DNA from: Trichodesmium erythraeum IMS101
GTDB taxonomy: Bacteria; Cyanobacteriota; Cyanobacteriia; Cyanobacteriales; Microcoleaceae
Direction of reading: 5' to 3'
DNA: 32,000 nucleotides
Assembly (NCBI RefSeq): GCF_000014265.1
Contig: NC_008312.1
Coordinates: forward strand, 4,020,001 to 4,052,000
Of the stretch, positions 9,393 to 32,000 are shown piece after piece. Both the position numbers and the translations under genes were made by a program. Position 1 is the first letter of the stretch; each line of letters begins with the position of its first letter. The notes beneath the pieces were generated by a model. It was not told where the DNA came from. It was given only the letters and a program-made list of their open reading frames with translations, and made no database searches.

Positions 9393-9616
9393 ATTGATTT
9401 AGTTAATTTAGATAAGTATATTTACTAAGTTTTAAGTTTAAAGTTATTACAGTATAATTGAGTTAAAATATTTGCTAGCATTAATATGGGGTCAAAAAAA
9501 AGAATGTATAAACTTTCTAGAAGGCTCTTTTACGAGAGTTAGAGAAAATATTTGTATAATTCTATGAAGATTTTGTAATCAAAAAATATACTCAAAGTTA
9601 TTACTAAATAAATGCA

Positions 9617-10210
9617 ATGAACGAAATTATTATATCATGGGAAGAGCAAGACACAACCAAGACTAAAACAATAAAGGAAATACAACCTAGCAAAAATCCA
9701 GGAACAGTTAGGTTAGGTCGAGAACCAGCTAATTGTGATATCACTTTTGATGACCCTAGTGTATCTAGGCTTCATGTAGAAATTTTTTATAACAGTCAAG
9801 ATAACAAGTTTTATTTGCGCAATCTAAAAGCTAGTAACCCGCCAATAGTAGATAAAAAGCTTATTGTTAAATATGCAGAAGTTGTTTTAAATAATAATAG
9901 TTTGATATGTCTTGGTCAAACAAAAATTAAAGTTATCTATAACGCAAATAATATTTTCACCTCTCCTACAATTTTGCAATCTCCAATTCCTTTGAATAAT
10001 AACAGTACGGTTTTAAGTCCTCCAGATGCTTCTCAATTAAAAGAACTAGCAACTAAACCAAAAAGATCCATATTTGGAGCTAATTATTTGGTTTGTCCAA
10101 ACCCTAATTGTGGTAAACTTGTATCAATAGAAAAGTTAAATATTGGGTGTAGTTGGTGTGGTACTTCTTTAGCTGATGCCAAAAGTATTATTGTTCCTAA
10201 TAATAATTAA
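9617..10210 (+). CDS. FHA-domain protein with C-terminal zinc-ribbon
   Basis: 197-aa ORF. FHA signature (VRLGREPANCDITFDDPSVSRLHVEIFY ... FYLRNLKASNPPIVD). C-terminal CPNPNCG-x14-CSWCG four-Cys ribbon. Divergent from the kinase gene. Confidence 0.8.
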   Translation: MNEIIISWEEQDTTKTKTIKEIQPSKNPGTVRLGREPANCDITFDDPSVSRLHVEIFYNSQDNKFYLRNLKASNPPIVDKKLIVKYAEVVLNNNSLICLGQTKIKVIYNANNIFTSPTILQSPIPLNNNSTVLSPPDASQLKELATKPKRSIFGANYLVCPNPNCGKLVSIEKLNIGCSWCGTSLADAKSIIVPNNN

Positions 10211-10590
10211 TCAGAATTCAAGTTTAGGCAAAAAGAATATGATTACTGTTAATAAAATAATTTATATATAGTAGGATAAAATAATTTGTAAATAATCTAT
10301 AGATAAAATGTTAAGTAGGTAAACAATATAAATTACATATTGAACGAATCTCAAATCTAATATTTGTTTCAAAATCTCCCTTTGCCAATTTTTTATAAGT
10401 TTATCTGCTGAAAATCTATTGGATAATTGCTATATAGGTTTGCAAGTTTTTCAGAGGAAATAAACTAAAAAAAATATTTATATATAAATAATAGTTTAGA
10501 ATCTTTATTGAAACCATATAGAGTGTAAAAAATATAATTATTGAATAATTTAAATCAGCATAATTGATAACATAATTAATGGTAAAATTC

Positions 10591-11580
10591 ATCACCTCTG
10601 ACAATTTTAGTCTTTATTATTAATAGTAAAAATACGATTTATGAAAATTTTAGTATTAAACTGATATGGAAAAAATTAACTACTGGATACCTCAAAAAAA
10701 ACTACAATATAAATTGCCAGTAGCTATAGTCAGATAATTTAGTAAAATGCCATCCACTATTAGTTAAAATTTAGTTTCTAGTCTTAATTTAAACTACATA
10801 TAATTTCTGGGTATCATGCTTTAATTAGTTGAGAAGAAGGTGATTTAGCAATAGTTGAATAAAATAGCACAAACAGTATATTTATTAATAGTTTACTTCA
10901 AGCAAAATATTTTATTAAAAATTTGAAAGATATAATTATTTAAAATTTGTAAATCACTTAGCATAAATAATAAACATATTAATTTTGAAAAAAAATATGA
11001 ATTCTGAAAAATTTAGGATTAAATTTATATGAAAAAAAATTAACTATTGGATACCTCAAAAAAACGGAATTTAGAAAAATATAAATTCTGAAAAATTTAG
11101 TATTAAACTGATATGAAAAAAATTAACTACTGGATACCTCAAAAAAACACAATATAAATTGCCAGTATCTATAGTCATAAAATTTAGTAAAATGCTATCT
11201 ACTATTGGTGAAAACTCAGCTTCTAGACTTGACTTAAACTACATAGAAATATTTGGGTATTATGCCTTAATTTATTGAGAATAAGGTAATTTAGTAATAG
11301 TTGAATAAAATAGCAAGAACGGTATATTTATTAATAGTTTACTGCTAGCAAAATCTTTAATTAAATATGTGAAAAATATAATCGTTGAAATATTTGGGTA
11401 TTATGCCTTAATTTATTGAGAATAAGGTAATTTAGTAATAGTTGAATAAAATAGCACGAACGGTATATTTATTAATAGTTTACTGCCAGCAAAATCTTTA
11501 ATTAAATATGTGAAAAATATAATCGTTTAAAACTTGCAAATCACCTAGAATAAATCAGCAAAATATTAATAGTAAAAAAA
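10591..11580 (+). pseudogene. about 3.5 decayed head-to-tail copies of the FHA-encoding 5' module of the downstream gene
   Basis: Direct alignment by eye to 11555-11920. Copy A is ~10591-10996 and partial copy B is 10997-11067. Copy C is ~11083-11386 and half copy D is 11387-11580. All are riddled with stops and richer in A/T than the intact copy. Example: TTAACTACTGGATACCTCAAAAAAA versus the intact TTAACTACTGGATACCTCAGACAAC. Confidence 0.75.
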
Positions 11581-17814: not shown

Positions 17815-19650
17815 GTCTAAACCTAAATGTTCATAAAGCGATCGCTTCTTAACTAGCAAAAAAAAGTTGTTTTATTTTTAACTAATTGAAGTATAATAAA
17901 AAGTAGACTCACTATTTTTTTTGAGCACACGAGCTTCTGACAACTCAATGAGGAAAGGCGATGGTTGTAGGTGAAACTCAGTAAAATTAGAGTCCCTTGC
18001 TGCAATTCGCACATCTGTTGTGCTCACACTTTAGGAGTCGTTTGCATCATACAAAGCTATTGAGCACTAAGTACTGAAATCTGCTTATAAGTAAGATTAG
18101 GAAAAATTAGACTTTGAAGCTACTAAATATTTATAAAGCGATCGCTTCTTAACTAGCAAAAAAAGTTGTTTTATTTTTAACTAATTGAAGTATAATAAAA
18201 AGTAGACTCACTATTTTTTTTGAGCACACGAGCTTCTGACAACCCAATGAGGAAAGGCGATGGTTGTAGGTGAAACTCAGTAAAATTAGAGTCCCTTGCT
18301 GCAATTCGCACATCTGTTGTGCTCACACTTTAGGACTCGTTTGCATCATACAAAGCTATTGAGCACTAAGTACTGAAATCTGCTTATAAGTAAGATTAGG
18401 AAAAATTAGACTTTGAAGCTACTAAATATTTATAAAGCGATCGCTTCTTAACTAGCAAAAAAAGTTGTTTTATTTTTAACTAATTGAAGTATAATAAAAA
18501 GTAGACTCACTATTTTTTTTGAGCACACCAGCTTCTGACAACCGAGAAGGAAAGGCGATGGTTGTAGGTGAAACTCAGTAAAATTAGAGTCCCTTGCTAC
18601 AATTCTTACATTTGTTGTGCTCACACTTTAGGACTTTGGTCGCATCATCTGAAGCTCCTACAAACTAAGTTAAGTACCGAAGATATAATAGTTATAGGTA
18701 AAAATCAGATCGGAAAAATTAGACTTTGAAGCTACTAAATATTTATAAAGCGATCGCTTCTTAACTAGCAAAAAAAGTTGTTTTATTTTTAACTAATTGA
18801 AGTATAATAAAAAGTAGACTCACTATTTTTTTTGAATACACCAGCTTCTGACAACCGAGAAGGAAAGGCGATGGTTGTAGGTGAAACTCAGAAAAATTAG
18901 AGTCCCTTGCTGCAATTCTTACATCTGTTGTGCTCCCACTTTAGGACTTTGGCCGCATCATCTGAAGCTCCTGCAAACTAAGTTAAATACCGAAGATATA
19001 ATAGTTATAGGTAAAAATCAGATCGGAAAAATTAGACTTTGAAGCTACTAAATATTTATAAAGCGATCGCTTCTTAACCAGCAAAAAAAGTTGTTTTATT
19101 TTTAACTAATTGAAGTATAATAAAAAGTAGACTCACTATTTTTTTTGAATACACCAGCTTCTGACAACCGAGAAGGAAAGGCGATGGTTGTAGGTGAAAC
19201 TCAGAAAAATTAGAGTCCCTTGCTGCAATTCTTACATCTGTTGTGCTCCCACTTTAGGACTTTGGCCGCATCATCTGAAGCTCCTACAAACTAAGTTAAA
19301 TACCGAAGATATAAGAGTTATAGGTAAAAATCAGAAAAGTTAGACATCCCCGCTGCAATTCGCATATTTGTTGTACTCCCACTTTAGGACTTGTTTGCAT
19401 CATACAAAGCTATTGAGCAATAAGTAATGAATATCTAATGCTTATAGGTAAAATTAGGAAAAATTAGACTTTGAAGCTACTAAATATTTATGAAGCGATC
19501 GCTTCTTGACAAGCAGAAAAAGTTGTTTTATTTTTAAGTTAATTGAGTATTATAGGAAAGTAGTAACTCTTTTTTTTGAGATCACCAACTCCTGACAATC
19601 ATGAAAAAAACATCTAATGGTTGTAGGCAAGATGAGGAAAAATTAGACTT
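17815..19650 (+). repeat. tandem array of ~300-bp units, each with one HIP1 palindrome and a promoter-like module
   Basis: HIP1 sites at 17838, 18138, 18437, 18750, 19063 and 19495 give periods of 300, 299, 313, 313 and 432 bp. Each unit starts AGCGATCGCTTCTTAACTAGC-A7-GTTGTTTTATTTTTAACTAATTGAAGTATAAT. There are two variants of the 3' half: alpha in units 1-2, beta in units 3-5, and unit 5 carries beta plus alpha. The sixth copy is diverged and forms the upstream region of the gene at 19935. Confidence 0.9.
19506..19553 (+). promoter_or_regulatory. sigma70-like promoter module upstream of protease paralogue 1
   Basis: TTGACA (19506-19511), 17-nt spacer, TATTTT (19529-19534), plus a second -10-like TATTAT at 19548-19553. 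Homologous to the modules at 23404 and in the array units. The long distance to the ATG (~400 nt) lowers confidence. Confidence 0.4.
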
Positions 19651-19934
19651 TCAAACTACTAACCCAGATAAGTGCGAATGCTGTCTATATTCCTAAAGGT
19701 TTTGCTCCAACAGTAGTTTCCCACACCATCTCAAGCTCGTGAGCTGATGTAAAATTATAAAAAAATACTAGCTCATCCCCAGTGATAACTACCGATATTC
19801 CCCAAAAGTTGTGCTTCAGCTTCAATTATAGGGTTTTGGTCACATTACTTAAAGATCCAAAAAACCAAGGATGGAAGATCTAATGGTTGTAGGAAAAAAA
19901 ATTGACATTAGCACTTGGTGAACTTTTAAGAAAG

Positions 19935-21421: not shown

Positions 21422-23224
21422 ATGAAATCTCTACTGCCTATTATCAGTATAACTTTCTTATCAATAACTCTGACAAATTTTTCTTCCTCTGTCAAAAAAA
21501 CAGAGGTCGAAGACATAGCTTCTCGACTAGAGGATAGTATTGTTAAACTATCTTATAAAAATCAACCAGGAGATGGAACTGGTTTTTTTGTAGAGGTGGA
21601 AGGAAAGTCAGAAGTCTGTAGTGTACTAACAGCAGCTCATGTTGTGGAAAAAGAAGGACAAAAAATCTTATGGACTGAAAAAGATGAAAAAGTCTGGGAT
21701 GTTGCTACGGTAGAAAGATTTCCTGGTAGTATAGACTTGGCTTTGATTACTTTTAAGCCACACACAAAAAGATGTAATTATCCCGCACTAAAAATAGGTA
21801 AACCAGAAAACCTGAAGATAGGTAGTTCTATTTTTGTTTATGGTTTTCCTCGTCTGGATCAACATTTAGTGGCCCAGTTTGTTGGGGGTCAGGTTTCAGC
21901 TTTGAAGAAAAAAGCCCGGGGTTATGGGGTTGCTTATAAAGCTTTGACTGTTGAAGGAATGAGTGGAGCCCCTGTTGTGGATACAAAGGGTGAGGTTGTG
22001 GCAGTCCATGGAAGTAGTAACTCTAAAATGGTGCCAAGTTTGATATCTCAGCAGATAAGTAGGCCTGATATAGAATGGCAGCTTGATCGGCAAACTTTCA
22101 ATAGAATTAATAATAGTAGTTTGACCTGTGCTTGGGGTGTACCTATTAATTATTTTCGGGAGTCTAAGTTTTATAATGCTAAGTTATATAGTAATCTTCT
22201 ACCTTTAGACTTGAATAAGTGGATACTTTCGATATTTTCCATTAGTGGGTTGATGTTTAGCTCTGGTATTGTTTCTTTTCGGTTCAAGCGTTTTCAAGCT
22301 TCACCAGTTTCGGGACAAGAACAAAATGAGCAGGAAAGAGAGTTTGAGGATGTAGTATTTAGGGGAGAAGAAGAGCACAGACCGTTGAGTTCCCCGGCAA
22401 ATATTCCGACTCAGCTACAAAATGAGCAGGAAAGAGAGTTTGAGGATGTAGTATTTAGGGGAGAAGAAGAGCGCAGACCGTTGAGTTCCCCGGCAAATAT
22501 TCAGACTCAGCTACAAAATGAGCAGGAAAGAGAGTTTGAGGATGTAGTATTTAGGGGAGAAGAAGAGTACAGACCGTTGAGTTCCCTGGCAAATATTCCG
22601 ACTCAGCTACAAAATGAGCAGGAAAGAGAGTTTGAGGATGTAGTATTTAGGGGAGAAGAAGAGCACAGACCGTTGAGTTCCCTGGCAAATATTCAGACTC
22701 AGGAGCAGCAAAGGCAAGGAGGGGTTCAGGTTCTTGAACCTCCGTCTTCTGTGGTTTCTGTGCCTCTGGTTTCTGCAGCTGGAGTTGATTATACTAGGTT
22801 GCATGAGTTATTGGTGGCTAAAAGGTGGAAGGAAGCAGACGATGAAACATATCAAAGAATGATAGAAGTGGCGGACCGGAAGTCCCAAGGATGGTTGAGA
22901 ATTGAGGATACAAAGAATTTTCCTAGTCAAGATTTAGGGATTATTGATAAGCTATGGCTCAGATATAGTAATGGTATGTTTGGTTTTTCTGTTCAGAAGC
23001 AAGTTTATCAGAGTTTGGGTGGTACCCAGAGGTATAATCCAAAAGTAGTAGAGGATTTCGGAGATAAGGTGGGATGGCGCCTGGAGGGAAAATGGTTGAG
23101 TTATGATGGTTTGACTGTGAGTGATAATTATTACAGGGGACACCTGCCGTGTTGTGGGAATGAGGGGTCTTTGTATGGCTGGGCAGCAGTTCTTTGGTCT
23201 CTTCTCTCTCATAAAGATTTGTAA
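21422..23224 (+). CDS. membrane-anchored trypsin-like serine protease with charged 32-aa repeats and C-terminal GUN4 domain
   Basis: 600-aa ORF. Signal sequence. Catalytic triad motifs LTAAHVV, SIDLALITF, GMSGAPVVD. TM helix (ILSIFSISGLMFSSGIVSF). 4 x 32-aa repeat. GUN4 signature VDYTRLHELLVAKRWKEADDETYQRM ... GWLRIEDTKNFPSQDLGIIDKLWLRYSNGMFGFSVQKQVY. Confidence 0.85.
   Translation: MKSLLPIISITFLSITLTNFSSSVKKTEVEDIASRLEDSIVKLSYKNQPGDGTGFFVEVEGKSEVCSVLTAAHVVEKEGQKILWTEKDEKVWDVATVERFPGSIDLALITFKPHTKRCNYPALKIGKPENLKIGSSIFVYGFPRLDQHLVAQFVGGQVSALKKKARGYGVAYKALTVEGMSGAPVVDTKGEVVAVHGSSNSKMVPSLISQQISRPDIEWQLDRQTFNRINNSSLTCAWGVPINYFRESKFYNAKLYSNLLPLDLNKWILSIFSISGLMFSSGIVSFRFKRFQASPVSGQEQNEQEREFEDVVFRGEEEHRPLSSPANIPTQLQNEQEREFEDVVFRGEEERRPLSSPANIQTQLQNEQEREFEDVVFRGEEEYRPLSSLANIPTQLQNEQEREFEDVVFRGEEEHRPLSSLANIQTQEQQRQGGVQVLEPPSSVVSVPLVSAAGVDYTRLHELLVAKRWKEADDETYQRMIEVADRKSQGWLRIEDTKNFPSQDLGIIDKLWLRYSNGMFGFSVQKQVYQSLGGTQRYNPKVVEDFGDKVGWRLEGKWLSYDGLTVSDNYYRGHLPCCGNEGSLYGWAAVLWSLLSHKDL
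22322..22705 (+). repeat. intragenic 96-bp tandem repeat x4 (QNEQEREFEDVVFRGEEEHRPLSSPANIPTQL)
   Basis: Unit starts at 22322, 22418, 22514 and 22610. Copies differ at only a few nucleotides (H/R/Y, P/L, P/Q codons). Confidence 0.9.
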
Positions 23225-23561: not shown

Positions 23562-25433
23562 ATGAAGTCTCTTTTTTCTATCCTTGGTCTAACTTTCCTC
23601 TCTGTCATTCTGACAAACTGTTCCTTATCTCCAGAAAAAATAGCTTCTCGACTAAAACCTAGTATTGTCAAACTATCTTATAAAAATAAACCCGGACATG
23701 GAACTGGTTTTTTTGTGCCTGGAGAACTAGGGGTCTGTACTGTACTGACTGCAGCTCATGTTGTGGACGAGGAGGGAAAGGTAAGGTTACGCACTGAAAA
23801 AGATGGAAAATTCTGGGATGCGGCTACAGTAAAAATATTTCCTCGTACTATAGATATGGCTTTGGTGACTTTTAAGCCAGAGACGGAAAAATGTAATTAT
23901 CGGGCACTGAAAATAGGTAACTCAGATAGTCTCAGGATAGGTAGTTCTATTTTTATTTATGGTTTTCCTCGTCGGGGTGGGGCTCTAGTTCCCCAGTTTG
24001 TTGATGGTAAGGTCTCAGCTTTGGATAGGTTGGCTCGGGGTTATGGGGTTTCTTATAGTACTTTGACTGTGGGTGGAATGAGTGGAGCTCCTGTTGTGGA
24101 TGGGAGGGGTAGGGTTGTGGCTGTACATGGAATGAGCGATGTTGAAATAGTTCAAAGTTTGGCTTCACAACAAGCAGGTTTGTCTGAGGATGAACGGCTT
24201 TTGAGTCAGCAGGCTCAGGAAAGTTTGAGGGCTGCTGGTGTTCAACGTTTGACTTTTTCTTGGGGTATACCTATTACTTTTTTTCGGGAGTCTAAGTTTT
24301 ATTATTCTCAGGTTTCTGGGTTGAGTTTGTGGATGTTGTTTTATGGTGGGGCGGTGTTTGGTGGTGGTGTTGTTTATTTTGGGTTGAGGTATTTTCAAGC
24401 TCCACGGGTTTCAGGAGAAAGACAAGGGGACTGGGAAAGGCAACTTAAGAATGAAAAACGGAGGCGAGAGGAGGTTGAGGGCAGGTTGAGTTCTCTGGAA
24501 AGTTCTCGGGCTCAGGCACGGCAGGAGTTGGAAAGGCAAATAGAATGGGAAAGGGGGAAAAGACGGGAGTTTGAGGCACTGCTTAAGAATGAAAAACGGG
24601 GGCGAGAGGAGGTTGAGGGCAGGTTGAGTTCTCTGGAAAGTTCTGGGGCTCAGGCACAGCAGGAGTTGGAAAGGCAACTAGAATGGGAAAGGGGGAAAAG
24701 ACGGGAGTTTGAGGCACTGCTTAAGAATGAAAAACGGGGACGAGAGGAGGTTGAGGGCAGGTTGAGTTCTCTGGAAAGTTCTGGGGCTCAGGCACGGCAG
24801 GAGTTGGAAAGGCAACTAGAATGGGAAAGAGGGAAAAGACAGGAGCTTGAGGCACTGCTGCAAAGTCAAGGGGAGGTTCAGCCTCGGGTTGTTGAGCCTT
24901 TGTCTTCTGGTGATGTGCCTCTGGTTTCTGCAGTTGGGGTTAGTTATTCTAGGTTGCGTGATCTATTGGTGGCTAAAAAGTGGAGGGAAGCAGACCAAGA
25001 AACATACAAAAGAATGTTAGAAGTTGCGGGCAGGGAGTCCGAAGGATGGTTTAGAGGCTCGGATATAGAAAATTTTCCCTGCCAAGATTTAGCCACGATT
25101 GACAAACTATGGGTAAAGTATAGTAGTGGTAAGTTTGGTTTTTCTGTTCAGAAGCAAATTTATCAGAGTTTGGGTGGTACGAATGAATGGGACGAAAAAG
25201 TCTGGACAGCCTTCAGTGATCAAGTTGGATGGCGAAAAAGGGGTCGTTGGTTGAATTATGATGAGATTTTCGACGAGACATCGCATTGTGTGGGCCTCCT
25301 GCCAGGCATCACACATTGTGACCTCGGCCTGACCGGTGGGCCTGGTCCTTTTGACCTTATTGACTCTTTAAGGATATTAAAAATGGTGGCCATTATTTTT
25401 GCTATTACTATTTTCTCGCGCAGAGACTTGTAG
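23562..25433 (+). CDS. membrane-anchored trypsin-like serine protease (lipoprotein signal) with 46-aa coiled-coil repeats and C-terminal GUN4 domain
   Basis: 623-aa ORF. Signal MKSLFSILGLTFLSVILTNCS. Triad motifs LTAAHVV, TIDMALVTF, GMSGAPVVD. TM helix (LWMLFYGGAVFGGGVVYFGL). 3 x 46-aa repeat. GUN4 signature VSYSRLRDLLVAKKWREADQETYKRM ... FPCQDLATIDKLWVKYSSGKFGFSVQKQIY. Confidence 0.85.
   Translation: MKSLFSILGLTFLSVILTNCSLSPEKIASRLKPSIVKLSYKNKPGHGTGFFVPGELGVCTVLTAAHVVDEEGKVRLRTEKDGKFWDAATVKIFPRTIDMALVTFKPETEKCNYRALKIGNSDSLRIGSSIFIYGFPRRGGALVPQFVDGKVSALDRLARGYGVSYSTLTVGGMSGAPVVDGRGRVVAVHGMSDVEIVQSLASQQAGLSEDERLLSQQAQESLRAAGVQRLTFSWGIPITFFRESKFYYSQVSGLSLWMLFYGGAVFGGGVVYFGLRYFQAPRVSGERQGDWERQLKNEKRRREEVEGRLSSLESSRAQARQELERQIEWERGKRREFEALLKNEKRGREEVEGRLSSLESSGAQAQQELERQLEWERGKRREFEALLKNEKRGREEVEGRLSSLESSGAQARQELERQLEWERGKRQELEALLQSQGEVQPRVVEPLSSGDVPLVSAVGVSYSRLRDLLVAKKWREADQETYKRMLEVAGRESEGWFRGSDIENFPCQDLATIDKLWVKYSSGKFGFSVQKQIYQSLGGTNEWDEKVWTAFSDQVGWRKRGRWLNYDEIFDETSHCVGLLPGITHCDLGLTGGPGPFDLIDSLRILKMVAIIFAITIFSRRDL
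24444..24857 (+). repeat. intragenic 138-bp tandem repeat x3 (LKNEKRGREEVEGRLSSLESSGAQAQQELERQLEWERGKRREFEAL)
   Basis: Unit starts at 24444, 24582 and 24720. Near-identical at the DNA level. Confidence 0.9.
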
Positions 25434-25603
25434 AGTATAACATAAAACAGTTTCAGCCGTCAAGGTAAAAAGTATTATCTCTGTTTTTTTAACGAGTTTT
25501 CTTGATTTGAGGATTTTGATACCTCACTGATCGCGGGATACCCGTGGGGATGGAATGAGTAGGGAAAAGGGTTTCAGGGGGAAAAGGGAAGGGAGAGAAT
25601 AAA

Positions 25604-25750
25604 CCAAAAACCAAAAACCAAAAACCAAAAACCAAAAACCAAAAACCAAAAACCAAAAACCAAAAACCAAAAACCAAAAACCAAAAACCAAAAACCAAAA
25701 ACCAAAAACCAAAAACCAAAAACCAAAAACCAAAAACCAAAAACCAAAAA
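25604..25750. repeat. heptanucleotide microsatellite (CCAAAAA)x21, STRR-like
   Basis: Read directly. Period 7, first unit 25604-25610, last unit 25744-25750, ending 6 nt from the stop codon of the transposase gene. Confidence 0.95.
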
Positions 25751-25756
25751 CTAATT

Positions 25757-26521
25757 TTACTGATCATCAAAAAATTGCATAGCCACCTCCGGGTCATAAC
25801 AATTAGCCAAAACCAACTGTCTGGCCACCTCCACCACCAAATTTGAGGGAAGTTCCCAGTCAGCCCAAGGGAGTCGCATTTGTCCTGGAGAAGCCTTATT
25901 TTTTTTCTTTTTTTTCACCTTAGGCAAAAACCTACTACCCCACCGACGGCGCCTTTGAGACTTAGGTCGAGATTTATATTTCCGGCAAAAGCCCCTATAA
26001 TTTTGAGCACATTCATCAAGAGTTTTTCCCAGAGACAAAAAAGCTGGATGCCACTGTGTCAAACCATCATCAGTGAGACGGTCATAAGTGCCATAGTTAG
26101 AAAAGTCATAGAAAAAGCCAGACTGGATATTAGCAGCTTTTGGGTTAGCATGAATATAGCGAAGAGTATTCAAAGCTCGTTTTTTATCAGTATTGTCAAA
26201 CCCGGTGCTGTGGTATCTTTTCTCCCAAAAATGCCCCGTACGGTTAAGCATCTGGTTAAAACACATAGCGGTATACCAGTTGAGCCAGTGCATAATTTTA
26301 GGTAGTTCTTGTGGTTGGGAGGGCTCTAGTAAATAATGAACATGATTACTCATAATACAAAGAGCATAAAGTTTAAAGGAAAATTTATCTAAAGCCTTTT
26401 TCAAAGCAAACAAAAATATTTGGCGACATTGGAGACGAGTCAAATGAAACTCTCGGTTATTGCAGCGAGAAGTAACATGATAGGAATATTGGGGGAAAAG
26501 TTGGCGCGGTTGTCTAGGCAT
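25757..26521 (-). CDS. IS200/RAYT-type Y1 (HUH) tyrosine transposase-like protein with basic C-terminal extension
   Basis: 254-aa ORF. YHVTSRCNNREF, HUH motif MSNHVHYLLEP, GHFWEKRYHS, catalytic-Tyr region LRYIHANP. Lys/Arg-rich tail (RRRRW ... KVKKKKKNK). No partner tnpB and no recognisable IS ends. Confidence 0.8.
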   Translation of the reverse strand: MPRQPRQLFPQYSYHVTSRCNNREFHLTRLQCRQIFLFALKKALDKFSFKLYALCIMSNHVHYLLEPSQPQELPKIMHWLNWYTAMCFNQMLNRTGHFWEKRYHSTGFDNTDKKRALNTLRYIHANPKAANIQSGFFYDFSNYGTYDRLTDDGLTQWHPAFLSLGKTLDECAQNYRGFCRKYKSRPKSQRRRRWGSRFLPKVKKKKKNKASPGQMRLPWADWELPSNLVVEVARQLVLANCYDPEVAMQFFDDQ

Positions 26522-26589: not shown

Positions 26590-29500
26590 TATTTCAGTTA
26601 TTTCTGATTTTTTGACGGAAAATTCTCAGATAAAAAATTAGATAAAAAATTAGGCAAAAAATTAGATAAAAAATCAAAAGTACTCAGACAGATATTTCGG
26701 TTCAAATATTTTTTTGTGTTTGAGCGATCGCTAATTTTAGCTATTAGCTAAGAGCTGGAAAAATTGAGGAAAAAATTTATCTCAAATATATTAATAAGTC
26801 ATTTCTCAGGCATCAGCTTTTTGACGGAAAATTCTCAGACAAAAAATTAGATAAAAAATTAGACAAAAAAATAAAAAGTACTCAGCCAGATATTACAGAA
26901 AATTCTCAGATGAAAAATTAGGCAAAAAATTAGATAAAAAATTAGACAAAAAAATAAAAAGTACTCAGACAGATATTTCGGTTCAAATATTTTTTTGTGT
27001 TTGAGCGATCGCTAATTTTAGCCATCAGCTAAGAGCTGGAAAAATTGAGGAAAAAATTTATCTCAAATAATAAAGTCATTTCTCAGCCGTCAGCTTTTTG
27101 ACGGAAAATTATCAGATGAAAAATTAGGCAAAAAATTAGATAAAAAATTAGACAAAAAAATCAAAAGTACTCAGCCAGATATTACGGAAAATTCTCAGAT
27201 GAAAAATTAGATAAAAAATTAGGCAAAAAACCAGAAGTACTCAGACAGATATTTCGGTTCAAATATTTTTTTGTGTTTGAGCGATCGCTAATTTTAGCCA
27301 TCAGCTAAGAGCTGGAAAAATTGAGGAAAAAATTTATCTCAAATATATTAATAAGTCATTTCTCAGGCATCAGCTTTTTGACCGAAAATTCTCAGATGAA
27401 AAATTAGGCAAAAAATTAGAAGTACTCAGCCAGATATTACGGAAAATTCTCAGATAAAAAATTAGGCAAAAAATTAGACAAAAAAATCAAAAGTACTCAG
27501 CCAGATATTTCCGTTCAAATATTTTTTCGTGTTTGAGCGATCGCTAATTTTAGCCATCAGCTAAGAGCTGGAAAAATTGAGGAAAAAATTTATCTCAAAT
27601 AATAAAGTCATTTCTCAGCCGTCAGCTTTTTGACCGAAAATTCTCAGATGAAAAATTAGGCAAAAAACCAGAAGTACTCAGACAGATATTACGGAAAATT
27701 CTCAGATGAAAAATTAGATAAAAAATTAGGCAAAAAACCAGAAATACTCAGACAGATATTTCCGTTCAAATATTTTTTTGTGTTTGAGCGATCGCTAATT
27801 TTAGCCATCAGCTAAGAGCTGGAAAAATTGAGGAAAAAATTTATCTCAAATAATAAAGTCGTTTCTCAAGCATCAGCTTTTTGACGGAAAATTCTCAGAT
27901 GAAAAATTAGGCAAAAAATTAGATAAAAAATTAGGCAAAAAACCAGAAGTACTCAGCCAGATATTACGGAAAATTCTCAGATGAAAAATTAGATAAAAAA
28001 TTAGGCAAAAAATCAGAAATACTCAGACAGATATTTCCGTTCAAATGTTTTTTTCGTGTTTGAGCGATCGCTAAATTTAGCCATTAGCTAAGAGCTGGAA
28101 AAATTGAGGAAAAAATTTATCTCAAATATATTAATAAGTCATTTCTCAGCCGCCAGCTTTTTGACGGAAAATTATCAGATAAAAAATTAGGCAAAAAATT
28201 AGATAAAAAATTAGACAAAAAAATCAAAAGTACTCAGCCAGATATTACGGAAAATTCTCAGATGAAAAATTAGATAAAAAATTAGGCAAAAAACCAGAAG
28301 TACTCAGACAGATATTTCGGTTCAAATATTTTTTCGTGTTTGAGCGATCGCTAATTTTAGCCATCAGCTAAGAGCTGGAAAAATTGAGGAAAAAATTTAT
28401 CTCAAATAATAAAGTTGTTTCTCAAGCATCAGCTTTTTGACCGAAAATTCTCAGATGAAAAATTAGATGAAAAATTAGATGAAAAATTAGATGAAAAATT
28501 AGACAAAAAAATAAAAAGTACTCAGCCAGATATTACGGAAAATTCTCAGATGAAAAATTAGATAAAAATTAGGCAAAAAATCAGAAATACTCAGACAGAT
28601 ATTTCCGTTCAAATATTTTTTCGTGTTTGAGCGATCGCTAATTTTAGCCATTAGCTAAGAGCTGGAAAAATTGAGGAAAAAATTTATCTCAAATAATAAA
28701 GCCATTTCTCAGGCATCAGCTTTTTGACCGAAAATTATCAGATGAAAAATTAGGCAAAAAATTAGATAAAAAATTAGGCAAAAAACCAGAAGTACTCAGC
28801 CAGATATTACGGAAAATTCTCAGATGAAAAATTAGATAAAAAATTAGATAAAAATTAGAAGTACTCAGACAGATATTTCGGTTCAAATATTTTTTTGTGT
28901 TTGAGCGATCGCTAATTTTAGCCATTAGCTAAGAGCTGGAAAAATTGAGGAAAAAATTTATCTCAAATAATAAAGCCATTTCTCAGGCATCAGCTTTTTG
29001 ACCGAAAATTATCAGATGAAAAATTAGGCAAAAAATTAGATAAAAAATTAGGCAAAAAACCAGAAGTACTCAGCCAGATATTACGGAAAATTCTCAGATG
29101 AAAAATTAGATAAAAAATTAGATAAAAATTAGAAGTACTCAGACAGATATTTCGGTTCAAATATTTTTTTGTGTTTGAGCGATCGCTAATTTTAGCCATC
29201 AGCTAAGAGCTGGAAAAATTGAGGAAAAAATTTATCTCAAATAATAAAGTTGTTTCTCAAGCATCAGCTTTTTGACCGAAAATTCTCAGATGAAAAATTA
29301 GATGAAAAATTAGATGAAAAATTAGATGAAAAATTAGACAAAAAAATAAAAAGTACTCAGCCAGATATTACGGAAAATTCTCAGATGAAAAATTAGATAA
29401 AAATTAGGCAAAAAATCAGAAATACTCAGACAGATATTTCCGTTCAAATATTTTTTCGTGTTTGAGCGATCGCTAATTTTAGCTATTAGCTAAGAGCTGG

Positions 29501-32000
29501 AAAAATTGAGGAAAAAATTTATCTCAAATATATTAATAAGTCATTTCTCAGGCATCAGCTTTTTGACGGAAAATTCTCAGACAAAAAATTAGATAAAAAA
29601 TTAGACAAAAAAATAAAAAGTACTCAGCCAGATATTACAGAAAATTCTCAGATGAAAAATTAGGCAAAAAATTAGATAAAAAATTAGACAAAAAAATAAA
29701 AAGTACTCAGACAGATATTTCGGTTCAAATATTTTTTTGTGTTTGAGCGATCGCTAATTTTAGCCATCAGCTAAGAGCTGGAAAAATTGAGGAAAAAATT
29801 TATCTCAAATAATAAAGTCATTTCTCAGCCGTCAGCTTTTTGACGGAAAATTATCAGATGAAAAATTAGGCAAAAAATTAGATAAAAAATTAGACAAAAA
29901 AATCAAAAGTACTCAGCCAGATATTACGGAAAATTCTCAGATGAAAAATTAGATAAAAAATTAGGCAAAAAACCAGAAGTACTCAGACAGATATTTCGGT
30001 TCAAATATTTTTTTGTGTTTGAGCGATCGCTAAATTTAGCCATCAGCCAGGAGCTGGAAAAATTGAGGAAAAAATTTATCTCAAATAATAAAGTCGTTTC
30101 TCAGCCGTCAGCTTTTTGACCGAAAATTATCAGATGAAAAATTAGGCAAAAAATTAGATAAAAAATTAGACAAAAAATTAGAAGTACTCAGCCAGATATT
30201 ACGGAAAATTCTCAGATGAAAAATTAGATAAAAAATTAGGCAAAAAATCAGAAATACTCAGACAGATATTTCGGTTCAAATATTTTTTTGTGTTTGAGCG
30301 ATCGCTAATTTTAGCCATCAGCTAAGAGCTGGAAAAATTGAGGAAAAAATTTATCTCAAATAATAAAGTTGTTTCTCAAGCATCAGCTTTTTGACCGAAA
30401 ATTCTCAGATGAAAAATTAGATGAAAAATTAGATGAAAAATTAGATGAAAAATTAGACAAAAAAATAAAAAGTACTCAGCCAGATATTACGGAAAATTCT
30501 CAGATGAAAAATTAGATAAAAATTAGGCAAAAAATCAGAAATACTCAGACAGATATTTCCGTTCAAATATTTTTTCGTGTTTGAGCGATCGCTAATTTTA
30601 GCCATTAGCTAAGAGCTGGAAAAATTGAGGAAAAAATTTATCTCAAATAATAAAGCCATTTCTCAGGCATCAGCTTTTTGACCGAAAATTATCAGATGAA
30701 AAATTAGGCAAAAAATTAGATAAAAAATTAGGCAAAAAACCAGAAGTACTCAGCCAGATATTACGGAAAATTCTCAGATGAAAAATTAGATAAAAAATTA
30801 GATAAAAATTAGAAGTACTCAGACAGATATTTCGGTTCAAATATTTTTTTGTGTTTGAGCGATCGCTAATTTTAGCCATCAGCTAAGAGCTGGAAAAATT
30901 GAGGAAAAAATTTATCTCAAATAATAAAGTTGTTTCTCAAGCATCAGCTTTTTGACCGAAAATTCTCAGATGAAAAATTAGATGAAAAATTAGATGAAAA
31001 ATTAGATGAAAAATTAGACAAAAAAATAAAAAGTACTCAGCCAGATATTACGGAAAATTCTCAGATGAAAAATTAGATAAAAATTAGGCAAAAAATCAGA
31101 AATACTCAGACAGATATTTCCGTTCAAATATTTTTTCGTGTTTGAGCGATCGCTAATTTTAGCCATTAGCTAAGAGCTGGAAAAATTGAGGAAAAAATTT
31201 ATCTCAAATAATAAAGCCATTTCTCAGGCATCAGCTTTTTGACCGAAAATTATCAGATGAAAAATTAGGCAAAAAATTAGATAAAAAATTAGGCAAAAAA
31301 CCAGAAGTACTCAGCCAGATATTACGGAAAATTCTCAGATGAAAAATTAGATAAAAAATTAGATAAAAATTAGAAGTACTCAGACAGATATTTCGGTTCA
31401 AATATTTTTTTGTGTTTGAGCGATCGCTAATTTTAGCCATCAGCCAGGAGCTGGAAAAATTAAGGAAAAAATTTATCTCAAATAATAAAGCCATTTCTCA
31501 GGCATCAGCTTTTTGACCGAAAATTATCAGATGAAAAATTAGGCAAAAAATTAGAAGTACTCAGCCAGATATTACGGAAAATTCTCAGATGAAAAATTAG
31601 ATAAAAAATTAGATAAAAATTAGAAGTACTCAGACAGATATTTCCGTTCAAATATTTTTTTGTGTTTGAGCGATCGCTAAATTTAGCCATTAGCTAAGAG
31701 CTGGAAAAATTGAGGAAAAAATTTATCTCAAATATATTAATAAGTCATTTCTCAGCCGCCAGCTTTTTGACCGAAAATTCTCAGATGAAAAATTAGGCAA
31801 AAAATTAGATAAAAAATTAGGCAAAAAACCAGAAGTACTCAGCCAGATATTACGGAAAATTCTCAGATGAAAAATTAGATAAAAATTAGAAGTACTCAGA
31901 CAGATATTTCGGTTCAAATATTTTTTTGTGTTTGAGCGATCGCTAATTTTAGCCATCAGCTAAGAGCTGGAAAAATTGAGGAAAAAATTTATCTCAAATA
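26590..32000. repeat. open-ended nested tandem array: about 20 units of 250-287 bp, each with one HIP1 palindrome, two ~100-nt sub-repeats and 11-12 nt A-tract micro-repeats
   Basis: HIP1 GCGATCGC at 26724, 27005, 27281, 27537, 27788, 28064, 28344, 28631, 28905, 29179, 29466, 29747, 30023, 30298, 30585, 30859, 31146, 31420, 31670 and 31936. The unit consensus is readable directly. The array runs to the window edge. Confidence 0.95.

Follow-up and report, generated by a model that had tools for sequence, protein, structure and literature searches.

Long tandem arrays are known in the genus Trichodesmium, and approximately 40% of the Trichodesmium genome is non-coding DNA (Pfreundt et al. 2014, PMC4143802). 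A 7-repeat array at 103-110 kb of the T. erythraeum IMS101 genome spans more than 6 kb in units of 736-973 bp; each unit has a mapped transcription start site (TSS) and includes a duplicate of the neighbouring gene's 3' part, and the RNA of ~260 nt, confirmed by northern blotting, accounts for 44.7% of the TSS-associated primary reads (PMC4143802). A second system is NsiR1 of heterocystous cyanobacteria, a tandem small RNA (sRNA) array that lies upstream of hetF (Ionescu et al. 2010, cited in PMC6596454); its units carry an NtcA/HetR-dependent promoter, and the sRNA has been confirmed in 19 or more further heterocystous cyanobacteria (PMC6596454). Here we describe a nested tandem array of more than 5.4 kb that runs from position 26596 to the very end (32000) of a 32,000-nt stretch of the T. 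erythraeum IMS101 chromosome (hereafter the window), beside the 5' end of a gene whose product has a Y1 transposase (Y1_Tnp) domain. Like the 7-repeat array of the same genome, it is intergenic and several kilobases long, it consists of near-identical head-to-tail units, it abuts a gene and it has no similarity outside the species. Unlike that array, it has units of ~275 bp, 20 or more copies and three levels of internal nesting. With NsiR1 it shares the organisation of a cyanobacterial direct-repeat tandem array 5' of a gene, and also the idea of a promoter in each unit, but it has no terminator, no stable fold, no Rfam match and no conservation beyond one species.

We propose that this locus is a young, species-specific, non-coding macrosatellite of the T. 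erythraeum chromosome, a reading to which we give a probability of about 0.55. Satellite-style evolution is suggested because the array has a layered structure, is polymorphic in the copy number of a 12-nt motif, contains block duplications, is restricted to one species, and has no signal of coding capacity, RNA structure or association with a gene family. The array is new: it is a second multi-kilobase Trichodesmium array and is distinct from the published one in unit size, copy number and nesting, in a genus for which long species-specific arrays were already known. It is unusual for a bacterium, not for Trichodesmium, and it presents no positive evidence of function.

Anatomy and turnover of the array

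The extent of the array was determined from Tandem Repeats Finder (TRF), from the spacing of HIP1 sites and from an alignment of the units. Its parts, and those of one example unit, are as follows.

26596-32000, no strand assigned: nested tandem array, the candidate macrosatellite
26596-26722: partial first unit
26723-31934: 19 complete HIP1-to-HIP1 units, followed by a 20th that is cut by the window end
28630-28903, plus strand: example unit of type H (274 bp), a type present in four identical copies according to the unit classes
28630-28639, no strand assigned: extended HIP1 palindrome AGCGATCGCT, one per unit
28644-28658, plus strand: short hairpin TTAGC-N5-GCTAA
28665-28695, plus strand: A-rich block GAAAAATTGAGGAAAAAATTTATCTCAAATA, which varies in one unit only; of the three zones predicted to be bent, it is the first
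28730-28808, plus strand: sub-repeat 1, consisting of GAAAATTATCAGATG, three 11-12-nt micro-repeats and AGTACTCAGCCAGATATT
28812-28877, plus strand: sub-repeat 2, consisting of GAAAATTCTCAGATG, two micro-repeats and AGTACTCAGACAGATATT

TRF returned a single array at 27646-32000 (period 274, 15.8 copies, 88% matches, score 6546), and many nested 12/24-nt arrays were found inside it. Array-like sequence was observed to begin at ~26596, 75 nt upstream of the ATG of the Y1 gene (26521), and to continue to the window end. The extended HIP1 palindrome occurs 20 times between 26723 and 31935, at a spacing of 250-287 bp. On alignment of the 19 complete units, 195 of the 307 columns were invariant, and the mean pairwise identity was 94.3% (range 89.8-100%). 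Each unit leads from HIP1 through a short hairpin region and the almost invariant A-rich block to two sub-repeats of the form GAAAATT(C/A)TCAGATG, micro-repeats, AGTACTCAG(C/A)CAGATATT. The cores of these sub-repeats are contiguous 12-nt direct repeats of AAAAA(A)TTAGRY, in two to five copies, twice per unit. Since 20 of the 33 HIP1 sites in the window lie in this array, and another 6 in a smaller array at 17.8-19.7 kb, HIP1 is probably a passenger that was amplified together with the unit.

A previous description of the locus, which we call the sequence-only reading, had been made from the DNA letters without database searches, and most of its anatomy is retained here. The run of 20 HIP1-marked units of 250-287 bp up to the window edge is borne out by TRF, site spacing and alignment, and the alignment shows the A-rich block, the sub-repeat form and the AAAAA(A)TTAGRY micro-repeats as they had been described. 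The length of ~95-115 nt given for the sub-repeats needs correction, as their start-to-start spacing is 58-95 nt. Two overlapping hairpins had been described in every unit: TTAGC-N5-GCTAA stands, but CAGCT-AAG-AGCTG is absent from the example unit, which reads CATTAGC, and according to the alignment it is likewise missing from the other CATTAGC units. Both hairpins have stems of only 5 bp, and neither is prominent in the predicted fold of the unit. The three nested levels proposed in that reading were confirmed, but there is also a fourth, higher-order level, which consists of exact duplications of blocks of units.

This fourth level is apparent in the order of the unit types, ABCDEFGHHGABIGHGHJK, in which 11 variants follow each other non-periodically and the blocks AB and GH are repeated exactly. 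Exact repeats within the array extend over one to three consecutive units (GHG, ~850 bp), and the types that occur only once, C to F, form a string at the gene-proximal end. The number of micro-repeats varies between units (two to five copies) and, in one unit, also among ocean samples. A contig from TARA Oceans differs from IMS101 by micro-repeat indels of 12 and 25 nt within one corresponding unit. What we observe is a long, head-to-tail, non-coding array that contains exact multi-unit repeats and is restricted to one species, and these are the properties by which a satellite is recognised.

The anatomy, the restriction to one species and the lack of signals of coding, RNA structure or association with the gene family are direct results, whereas we infer the order and the mechanism of amplification and the neutrality of the array. 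In the first step, a 12-nt A-tract motif, AAAAAATTAGRY, would have expanded through replication slippage. A block of 58-95 nt that held the 12-nt motif would then have been duplicated, and in the third step a unit of ~275 bp, which by chance contained one HIP1 site, may have multiplied head to tail, through unequal homologous exchange or gene conversion. The copying of one- and two-unit blocks would represent a fourth step that is probably still going on, with continuing homogenisation of the units. The location beside the Y1 gene would be explained by the lineage-variable 5' side of this gene, and would require no action by the gene itself.

A repeat of comparable design was observed in a metagenome-assembled genome (MAG) of Trichodesmium sp. 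ALOHA_ZT_67, where a 13-nt minisatellite, (AAAAAATTGTGTG)x16, lies directly beside a HIP1 site (contig L088, 15110-15327). It shares with the micro-repeats of the array the design 'A6TT + 4-5 nt', and this suggests that the A6TT class of motifs expands readily in the intergenic DNA of Trichodesmium.

Distribution and independent assemblies

The distribution of the array was determined at the DNA and protein levels. Exact-pattern scans with a conserved 28-mer of the unit against genome, metagenome and viral contigs, and with a 35-mer against metagenome contigs, gave 0 matches. Using blastn, nothing was found for the array in plasmid and phage collections, and nothing outside the array was found for one unit in 91 related loci that carry the neighbouring genes. 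Within the window, the unit motifs are confined to the array. An exact look-up of a 69-aa open reading frame (ORF) of the array in protein collections gave no match, and the longest pseudo-ORF (87 aa) had a single match among 5.8 billion proteins. This is a 77-aa Metaclust sequence, which is identical to another ORF of the array (31723-31956, minus strand) and has no contig on record. In the searchable literature we found no description of this array, and in the literature searched there was no mention of Tery_2615, Tery_2616 or Tery_2618-2621.

The window covers about Tery_2606 to Tery_2620 of T. erythraeum IMS101, and the genes that surround the array are ordinary chromosomal genes. Three of its proteins match IMS101 proteins exactly (ABG51801, ABG51810 and ABG51815, from the chromosome of 7,750,108 bp). 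In published tables rpe is Tery_2606 and the RDD-domain kinase is Tery_2609, and both agree with the gene order in the window. From this gene order and the published locus tags, the Y1-domain ORF (Q111K9) would therefore be Tery_2620. The gene ahcY (Q111K6 = Tery_2623) is located past the array, whose far boundary is outside the window, and the array would occupy the interval between Tery_2620 and Tery_2621.

The junction between array and gene was reproduced in six independent contigs, one from the GBRTRLIN201 MAG, three from TARA and two from other metagenomes, with 97.5-100% nucleotide identity over gene and junction; all six end within unit 1-2. The T. erythraeum GBRTRLIN201 MAG from the Great Barrier Reef contains, on a contig of 127.8 kb, a gene for an identical Y1 protein, and the contig ends at window position 26735, at the first HIP1 site. 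The three short TARA Oceans contigs also encode an identical Y1 protein and end one to two units into the array, and the two remaining metagenome contigs (97.5-99.9% identity) end at window position 26674. In the two scaffolds among these six contigs, L001 and L090, there are gaps of 100 N where the window has its other internal repeats. The presence of the array and its tandem nature are real, and the observation is confirmed.

For the copy number of 20 or more and for the order of the units, the IMS101 assembly is the sole source, as no second assembly spans the array. It could be argued that the repetition is real, but that copy number and order are partly a construct of the finished sequence, since the exact repeats include up to three units (GHG) and every short-read assembly breaks inside the first one or two units. 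However, an assembler is unlikely to have invented 11 variants that follow each other non-periodically, and one TARA contig contains two full HIP1-marked units that were assembled independently. We consider such a construct very improbable. This second, structurally different Trichodesmium array, which every short-read assembly loses, shows that arrays of this kind are recurrent in these genomes and systematically under-sampled.

Gaps of 100 N also interrupt two paralogous genes of the window, at 21422-23224 and 23562-25433, which encode fusions of Trypsin_2 and GUN4 domains (L001 4089-4188; L090 1877-1976 and 3961-4060), and one of these genes is called in two pieces. The two genes contain in-frame tandem repeats of 96 bp x4 (22321-22702) and of 138 bp x3 (24444-24859), and the segment 24001-25000, which holds the 138-bp repeat, is G-rich with a GC skew of up to +0.49. 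Tandem duplications of 84 bp and 141 bp were observed in a 2.2-kb intergenic region at 9400-11580 (23-28% GC), which is flanked by the kinase gene on the minus strand and by two FHA-domain genes on the plus strand. This region coincides with the minimum of the cumulative GC skew of the window.

Coding, RNA and DNA-structure signals

The array holds only short ORFs, which vary from unit to unit and lack homologues beyond the one Metaclust copy; comparison of these ORFs upheld the earlier statement that no reading frame is conserved across units. A decayed coding repeat of ~92 codons per unit was rejected, since every frame has stops, the lengths of the units are not divisible by three and there are no homologous proteins. 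At the RNA level, no match to Rfam was obtained in the array at gathering thresholds or at E<=1, no tRNAs were found, and the number of terminator-like sites in a search for intrinsic terminators was 0. Compared with its dinucleotide shuffles, a whole unit has no excess stability in its predicted fold, whichever strand is taken (z +0.18 and +0.53). Promoter-like sites were not enriched (13, compared with 9.7 +/- 3.4 in shuffles), and a check by eye for the NtcA site GTA-N8-TAC and for LexA, HLR1/RpaB, Pho and DnaA boxes gave none that fits. Two promoter-like sites recur in the units.

28641-28668, minus strand: promoter-like site TTTCCA-N16-TAAAAT in the example unit, facing HIP1 and the Y1 gene, a consensus match only
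26764-26792, plus strand: promoter candidate TTGAGG-N17-TATATT

The second of these had been proposed in the sequence-only reading as a per-unit promoter. It is present exactly at the position given, but in 5 of the 20 units only, and like the minus-strand site it is a 9-of-12 consensus match.

Several observations weigh against a purely neutral macrosatellite. All 20 units carry the minus-strand site, TTTCCA-N16-TAAA(A/T)T (9-of-12 consensus match), which is directed toward HIP1 and the Y1 gene. The 77-aa Metaclust entry might stem from a transcriptome or metatranscriptome assembly and would then be a weak hint of expression; such an origin is suggested because two pattern scans of Joint Genome Institute (JGI) metagenome contigs yielded no array DNA. 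To regard the array as 'junk' is a risky default, since another tandem array of IMS101 gives 44.7% of the primary reads (PMC4143802). The junction of array and gene is maintained in T. erythraeum from different oceans, and several blocks of 20-35 nt are invariant in all units, although this invariance says little because the copies are so young. Finally, the array is predicted to be bent: in a wedge model with Bolshoy-Trifonov parameters, the values of which are indicative only, the mean bend (+/-21 bp) is 24 degrees, as against 15.6 in the rest of the window and 14.7 +/- 0.5 in composition-matched shuffles. Predicted bending is a property of the sequence and not evidence of function, but selection for a role in structure or binding might lie behind it.

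The first of these observations, together with the precedent in the same strain of a >6-kb array that produces an RNA of ~260 nt (PMC4143802), would fit a role that the sequence-only reading had also proposed, a tandem array of non-coding RNA (ncRNA) genes. Each ~275-bp unit would then have its own promoter and be transcribed into an RNA of unit length or a read-through product, rich in A when made from the plus strand and in U when made from the minus strand. The plus-strand site in a quarter of the units and the possible transcript origin of the Metaclust entry point in the same direction. However, the total of promoter-like sites does not exceed that of shuffled sequence and intrinsic terminators are lacking. 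Nor did we find a stable fold on either strand, a match to Rfam or conservation outside one species. The array is also absent among the top-ranked TSS in Table 1 of PMC4143802, from a library that excluded RNAs <300 nt. We regard ncRNA genes as the main rival to the macrosatellite, possible, if on balance unlikely. If the array is a macrosatellite, any transcription would most likely be incidental, arising from the weak minus-strand promoter-like site of each unit and reading toward the Y1 gene.

The bending prediction bears on another role put forward in the sequence-only reading, that of a protein-binding iteron field. Here a nucleoid-associated or partition-type protein would recognise the phased A-tract micro-repeats, either as iterons or as bent DNA, and the array would be a chromosomal organising or titration site. 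In the wedge model no other 2-kb stretch of the window is as bent as the array, and the end-to-end ratio is 0.71 as against 0.85. Three bent zones are predicted in each unit, namely the A-rich block and the two micro-repeat cores, and these cores hold contiguous 12-nt direct repeats in two to five copies. A shared motif, TCAGAT(CG)GAAAAATTAGAC, is present on the same strand in the smaller array at 17.8-19.7 kb, and one related lineage has parAB immediately upstream of its Y1 orthologue. Against this, a 12-bp phasing departs from the 10.5-bp helical repeat, the modelled bend is indicative only, the similarity to the smaller array is not above that of shuffles (78 of 500 reached the local alignment score), no gene for a candidate binding protein lies beside the array within the window, and sister lineages have no array. 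We consider a protein-binding role improbable. For the macrosatellite, the main physical effect would most likely be a periodic series of intrinsically bent A-tract segments.

Two related ideas gained no support. Common ancestry of the main array and the smaller one is unsupported: both contain TCAGAT(CG)GAAAAATTAGAC and HIP1, yet the score is reached by the 78 shuffles mentioned above. A centromere function was considered on account of parAB in the one related lineage, but the parB orthologue that we fetched lies on another contig, in an unrelated context and without a neighbouring array.

The smaller array, at 17823-19660, lies between the NurA gene and an ORF at 19902. It consists of ~313-bp units in five copies plus degenerate copies, and each unit contains AAGCGATCGCTT (HIP1) and a perfect TATAAT. 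It has no Rfam match, no terminator and a fold z of 0.13, and short-read T. erythraeum scaffolds have a gap of 100 N in its place.

It may also be hypothesised that the array is a functional bacterial 'satellite', which either yields abundant U-rich RNA from the conserved minus-strand promoter of each unit or, in what is a highly polyploid cyanobacterium, provides a platform of bent, phased A-tracts for the recruitment of a nucleoid protein, its higher-order repeats being maintained by selection and not by drift. We think this rather unlikely.

Trichodesmium is a globally important nitrogen fixer, and the reasons for its ~40% non-coding genome are not understood. If the array is neutral, it is still a clear bacterial case of hierarchical repeats that evolve in the manner of a satellite, and it offers a potential marker for the typing of T. 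erythraeum strains. If RNA were produced from the minus strand of each unit, T. erythraeum would possess another ncRNA factory in addition to the published array. The interval Tery_2620-Tery_2621 is a concrete locus that bears on whether repeat-derived RNAs are general in this species.

The neighbouring Y1 gene and known repeat systems

The array begins 75 nt from the ATG of its neighbour.

25757-26521, minus strand: gene for a 254-aa Y1_Tnp/'DUF1568' protein (ABG51815, Q111K9, probably Tery_2620)

The Y1_Tnp domain of this protein was identified with Pfam PF01797 (E 4.2e-18), and the HUH motif (H60, H62) and Y122 are invariant in 20 homologues. With the NCBIfam model for REP-associated tyrosine transposases (RAYT), NF047646, it scores 60.2 bits, below the cut-off of 80. 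Among solved structures, including TnpA, no sequence match was obtained with the protein (E<=0.01) or with a profile of the 20 homologues (E<=1). The family is 65-75% identical at the amino-acid level across cyanobacterial orders; it has a conserved C-terminal extension, occurs in two copies in some genomes and is not flanked by REP-like repeats. Judged by sequence, the protein looks like a domesticated HUH enzyme and not like an IS200 transposase or a classical RAYT. Hence, of the earlier statement that the array abuts the 5' end of a Y1/RAYT gene, the adjoining Y1-domain gene stands, but the RAYT assignment misses the cut-off of its model (60 vs 80 bits).

The same gene was compared in other genomes. 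At 80 orthologous cyanobacterial loci there is no consistent adjacent tandem array, and REP-like inverted pairs between the two flanks of the gene were found at 0 of the 80 (z>4). In the window, the inverted matches around the gene are A/T low-complexity sequence only, with no REP-like pair. Three other Trichodesmium lineages (88-94% nucleotide identity in the Y1 gene) have kept the GUN4/trypsin gene as its 3' neighbour. On the 5' side of the Y1 gene they have a P450 gene (ALOHA_ZT_67 MAG, on a 109-kb contig that runs through), parAB or a 191-aa ORF (MAG_R02), and no similarity to the array was found in these flanks. The 5' flank thus differs across four Trichodesmium lineages, with the 3' flank kept, and the array appears to be a T. 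erythraeum-specific occupant of this variable flank. The link to RAYT systems is one of adjacency only, because the 80 orthologues have neither an adjacent array nor flanking REP-like inverted repeats.

These comparisons bear directly on the suggestion, made in the sequence-only reading, that the array is a substrate of the Y1 transposase. In a broader form, the array would be a product or substrate of the adjacent HUH/Y1 enzyme, which would use the hairpins as REP-like sites or would nick the DNA and cause rolling-circle-like copying from the 5' side of the gene. The proximity of the array to the ATG, the invariant HUH residues and catalytic tyrosine, and the variation of the 5' flank next to a constant 3' flank are in its favour. 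However, relatives keep the gene without an array, neither the window nor the 80 orthologous loci show a REP-like inverted pair across the gene, the hairpin stems have 5 bp only and one hairpin is lost in CATTAGC units, and the protein neither reaches the RAYT cut-off nor matches a solved structure by sequence. We therefore give this explanation very little credence.

On the other side of the Y1 gene, between its stop codon and the convergent GUN4 gene, lies a perfect heptamer tract, (AAACCAA)x21.6, at 25601-25751, which agrees with the definition of an STRR. The tract differs among assemblies and lineages, with 5-9 copies and the heptamers CAAAAAC, AAACCTA and TAGGTTT. Of 84 orthologous loci, 29 have a heptamer tract no more than 300 bp downstream of the Y1 gene, where the background is 0.14 per 300 bp; the loci from Trichodesmium are not mutually independent.

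REP/REPIN-RAYT systems were reportedly described by Nunvar in 2010 and by Bertels and Rainey in 2011. REPs are palindromes of 20-40 nt which are dispersed genome-wide and flank the RAYT gene in inverted orientation. The present locus resembles these systems in having repetitive DNA beside a gene with a Y1 HUH-transposase domain, in which HUH and the catalytic tyrosine are present. It differs from them in its one-sided tandem array, its weak 5-bp hairpins and the lack of an inverted pair across the gene (0 of 80 loci).

The array was also proposed to lie outside the plain HIP1, STRR, LTRR/CRISPR and MITE classes, and this is upheld by our analysis: there are no unique spacers, no terminal inverted repeats (TIRs) and no dispersed copies in the window. 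Each unit does contain HIP1, and a true STRR-like tract lies on the other side of the Y1 gene, but the periods of the array are 12 and ~275 nt, not 7. In contrast to LTRR and CRISPR, the units are ~275 bp and not 37 bp long, all sequence between the elements is itself repeated, and no cas genes are present in the window. MITEs and insertion sequences (IS) differ as well, since the units of the array follow head to tail without spacer or TIR and no copies were found elsewhere in the window or at the 91 related loci.

Plasmid centromeres are a further comparison. The parC site of R1 consists of contiguous direct repeats of ~11-12 bp, and sopC of F consists of tandem 43-bp units downstream of the partition genes. 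The array likewise contains contiguous short direct repeats of comparable length, but it has no par genes beside it in the window, is far larger and lies in a chromosomal housekeeping context.

The last comparison is with satellites of the eukaryotic type. The present array differs from these in being bacterial, in measuring kilobases and not megabases, and in implying no centromere or heterochromatin role. In other respects the likeness is extensive: the array has nested periods of 12 nt, a 58-95-nt block, a ~275-bp unit and two-unit blocks, its interior units are homogenised and its once-only types C-F are gene-proximal, and, like such satellites, it is rich in A-tracts, predicted to be bent and species-specific, and short-read assemblies collapse on it.

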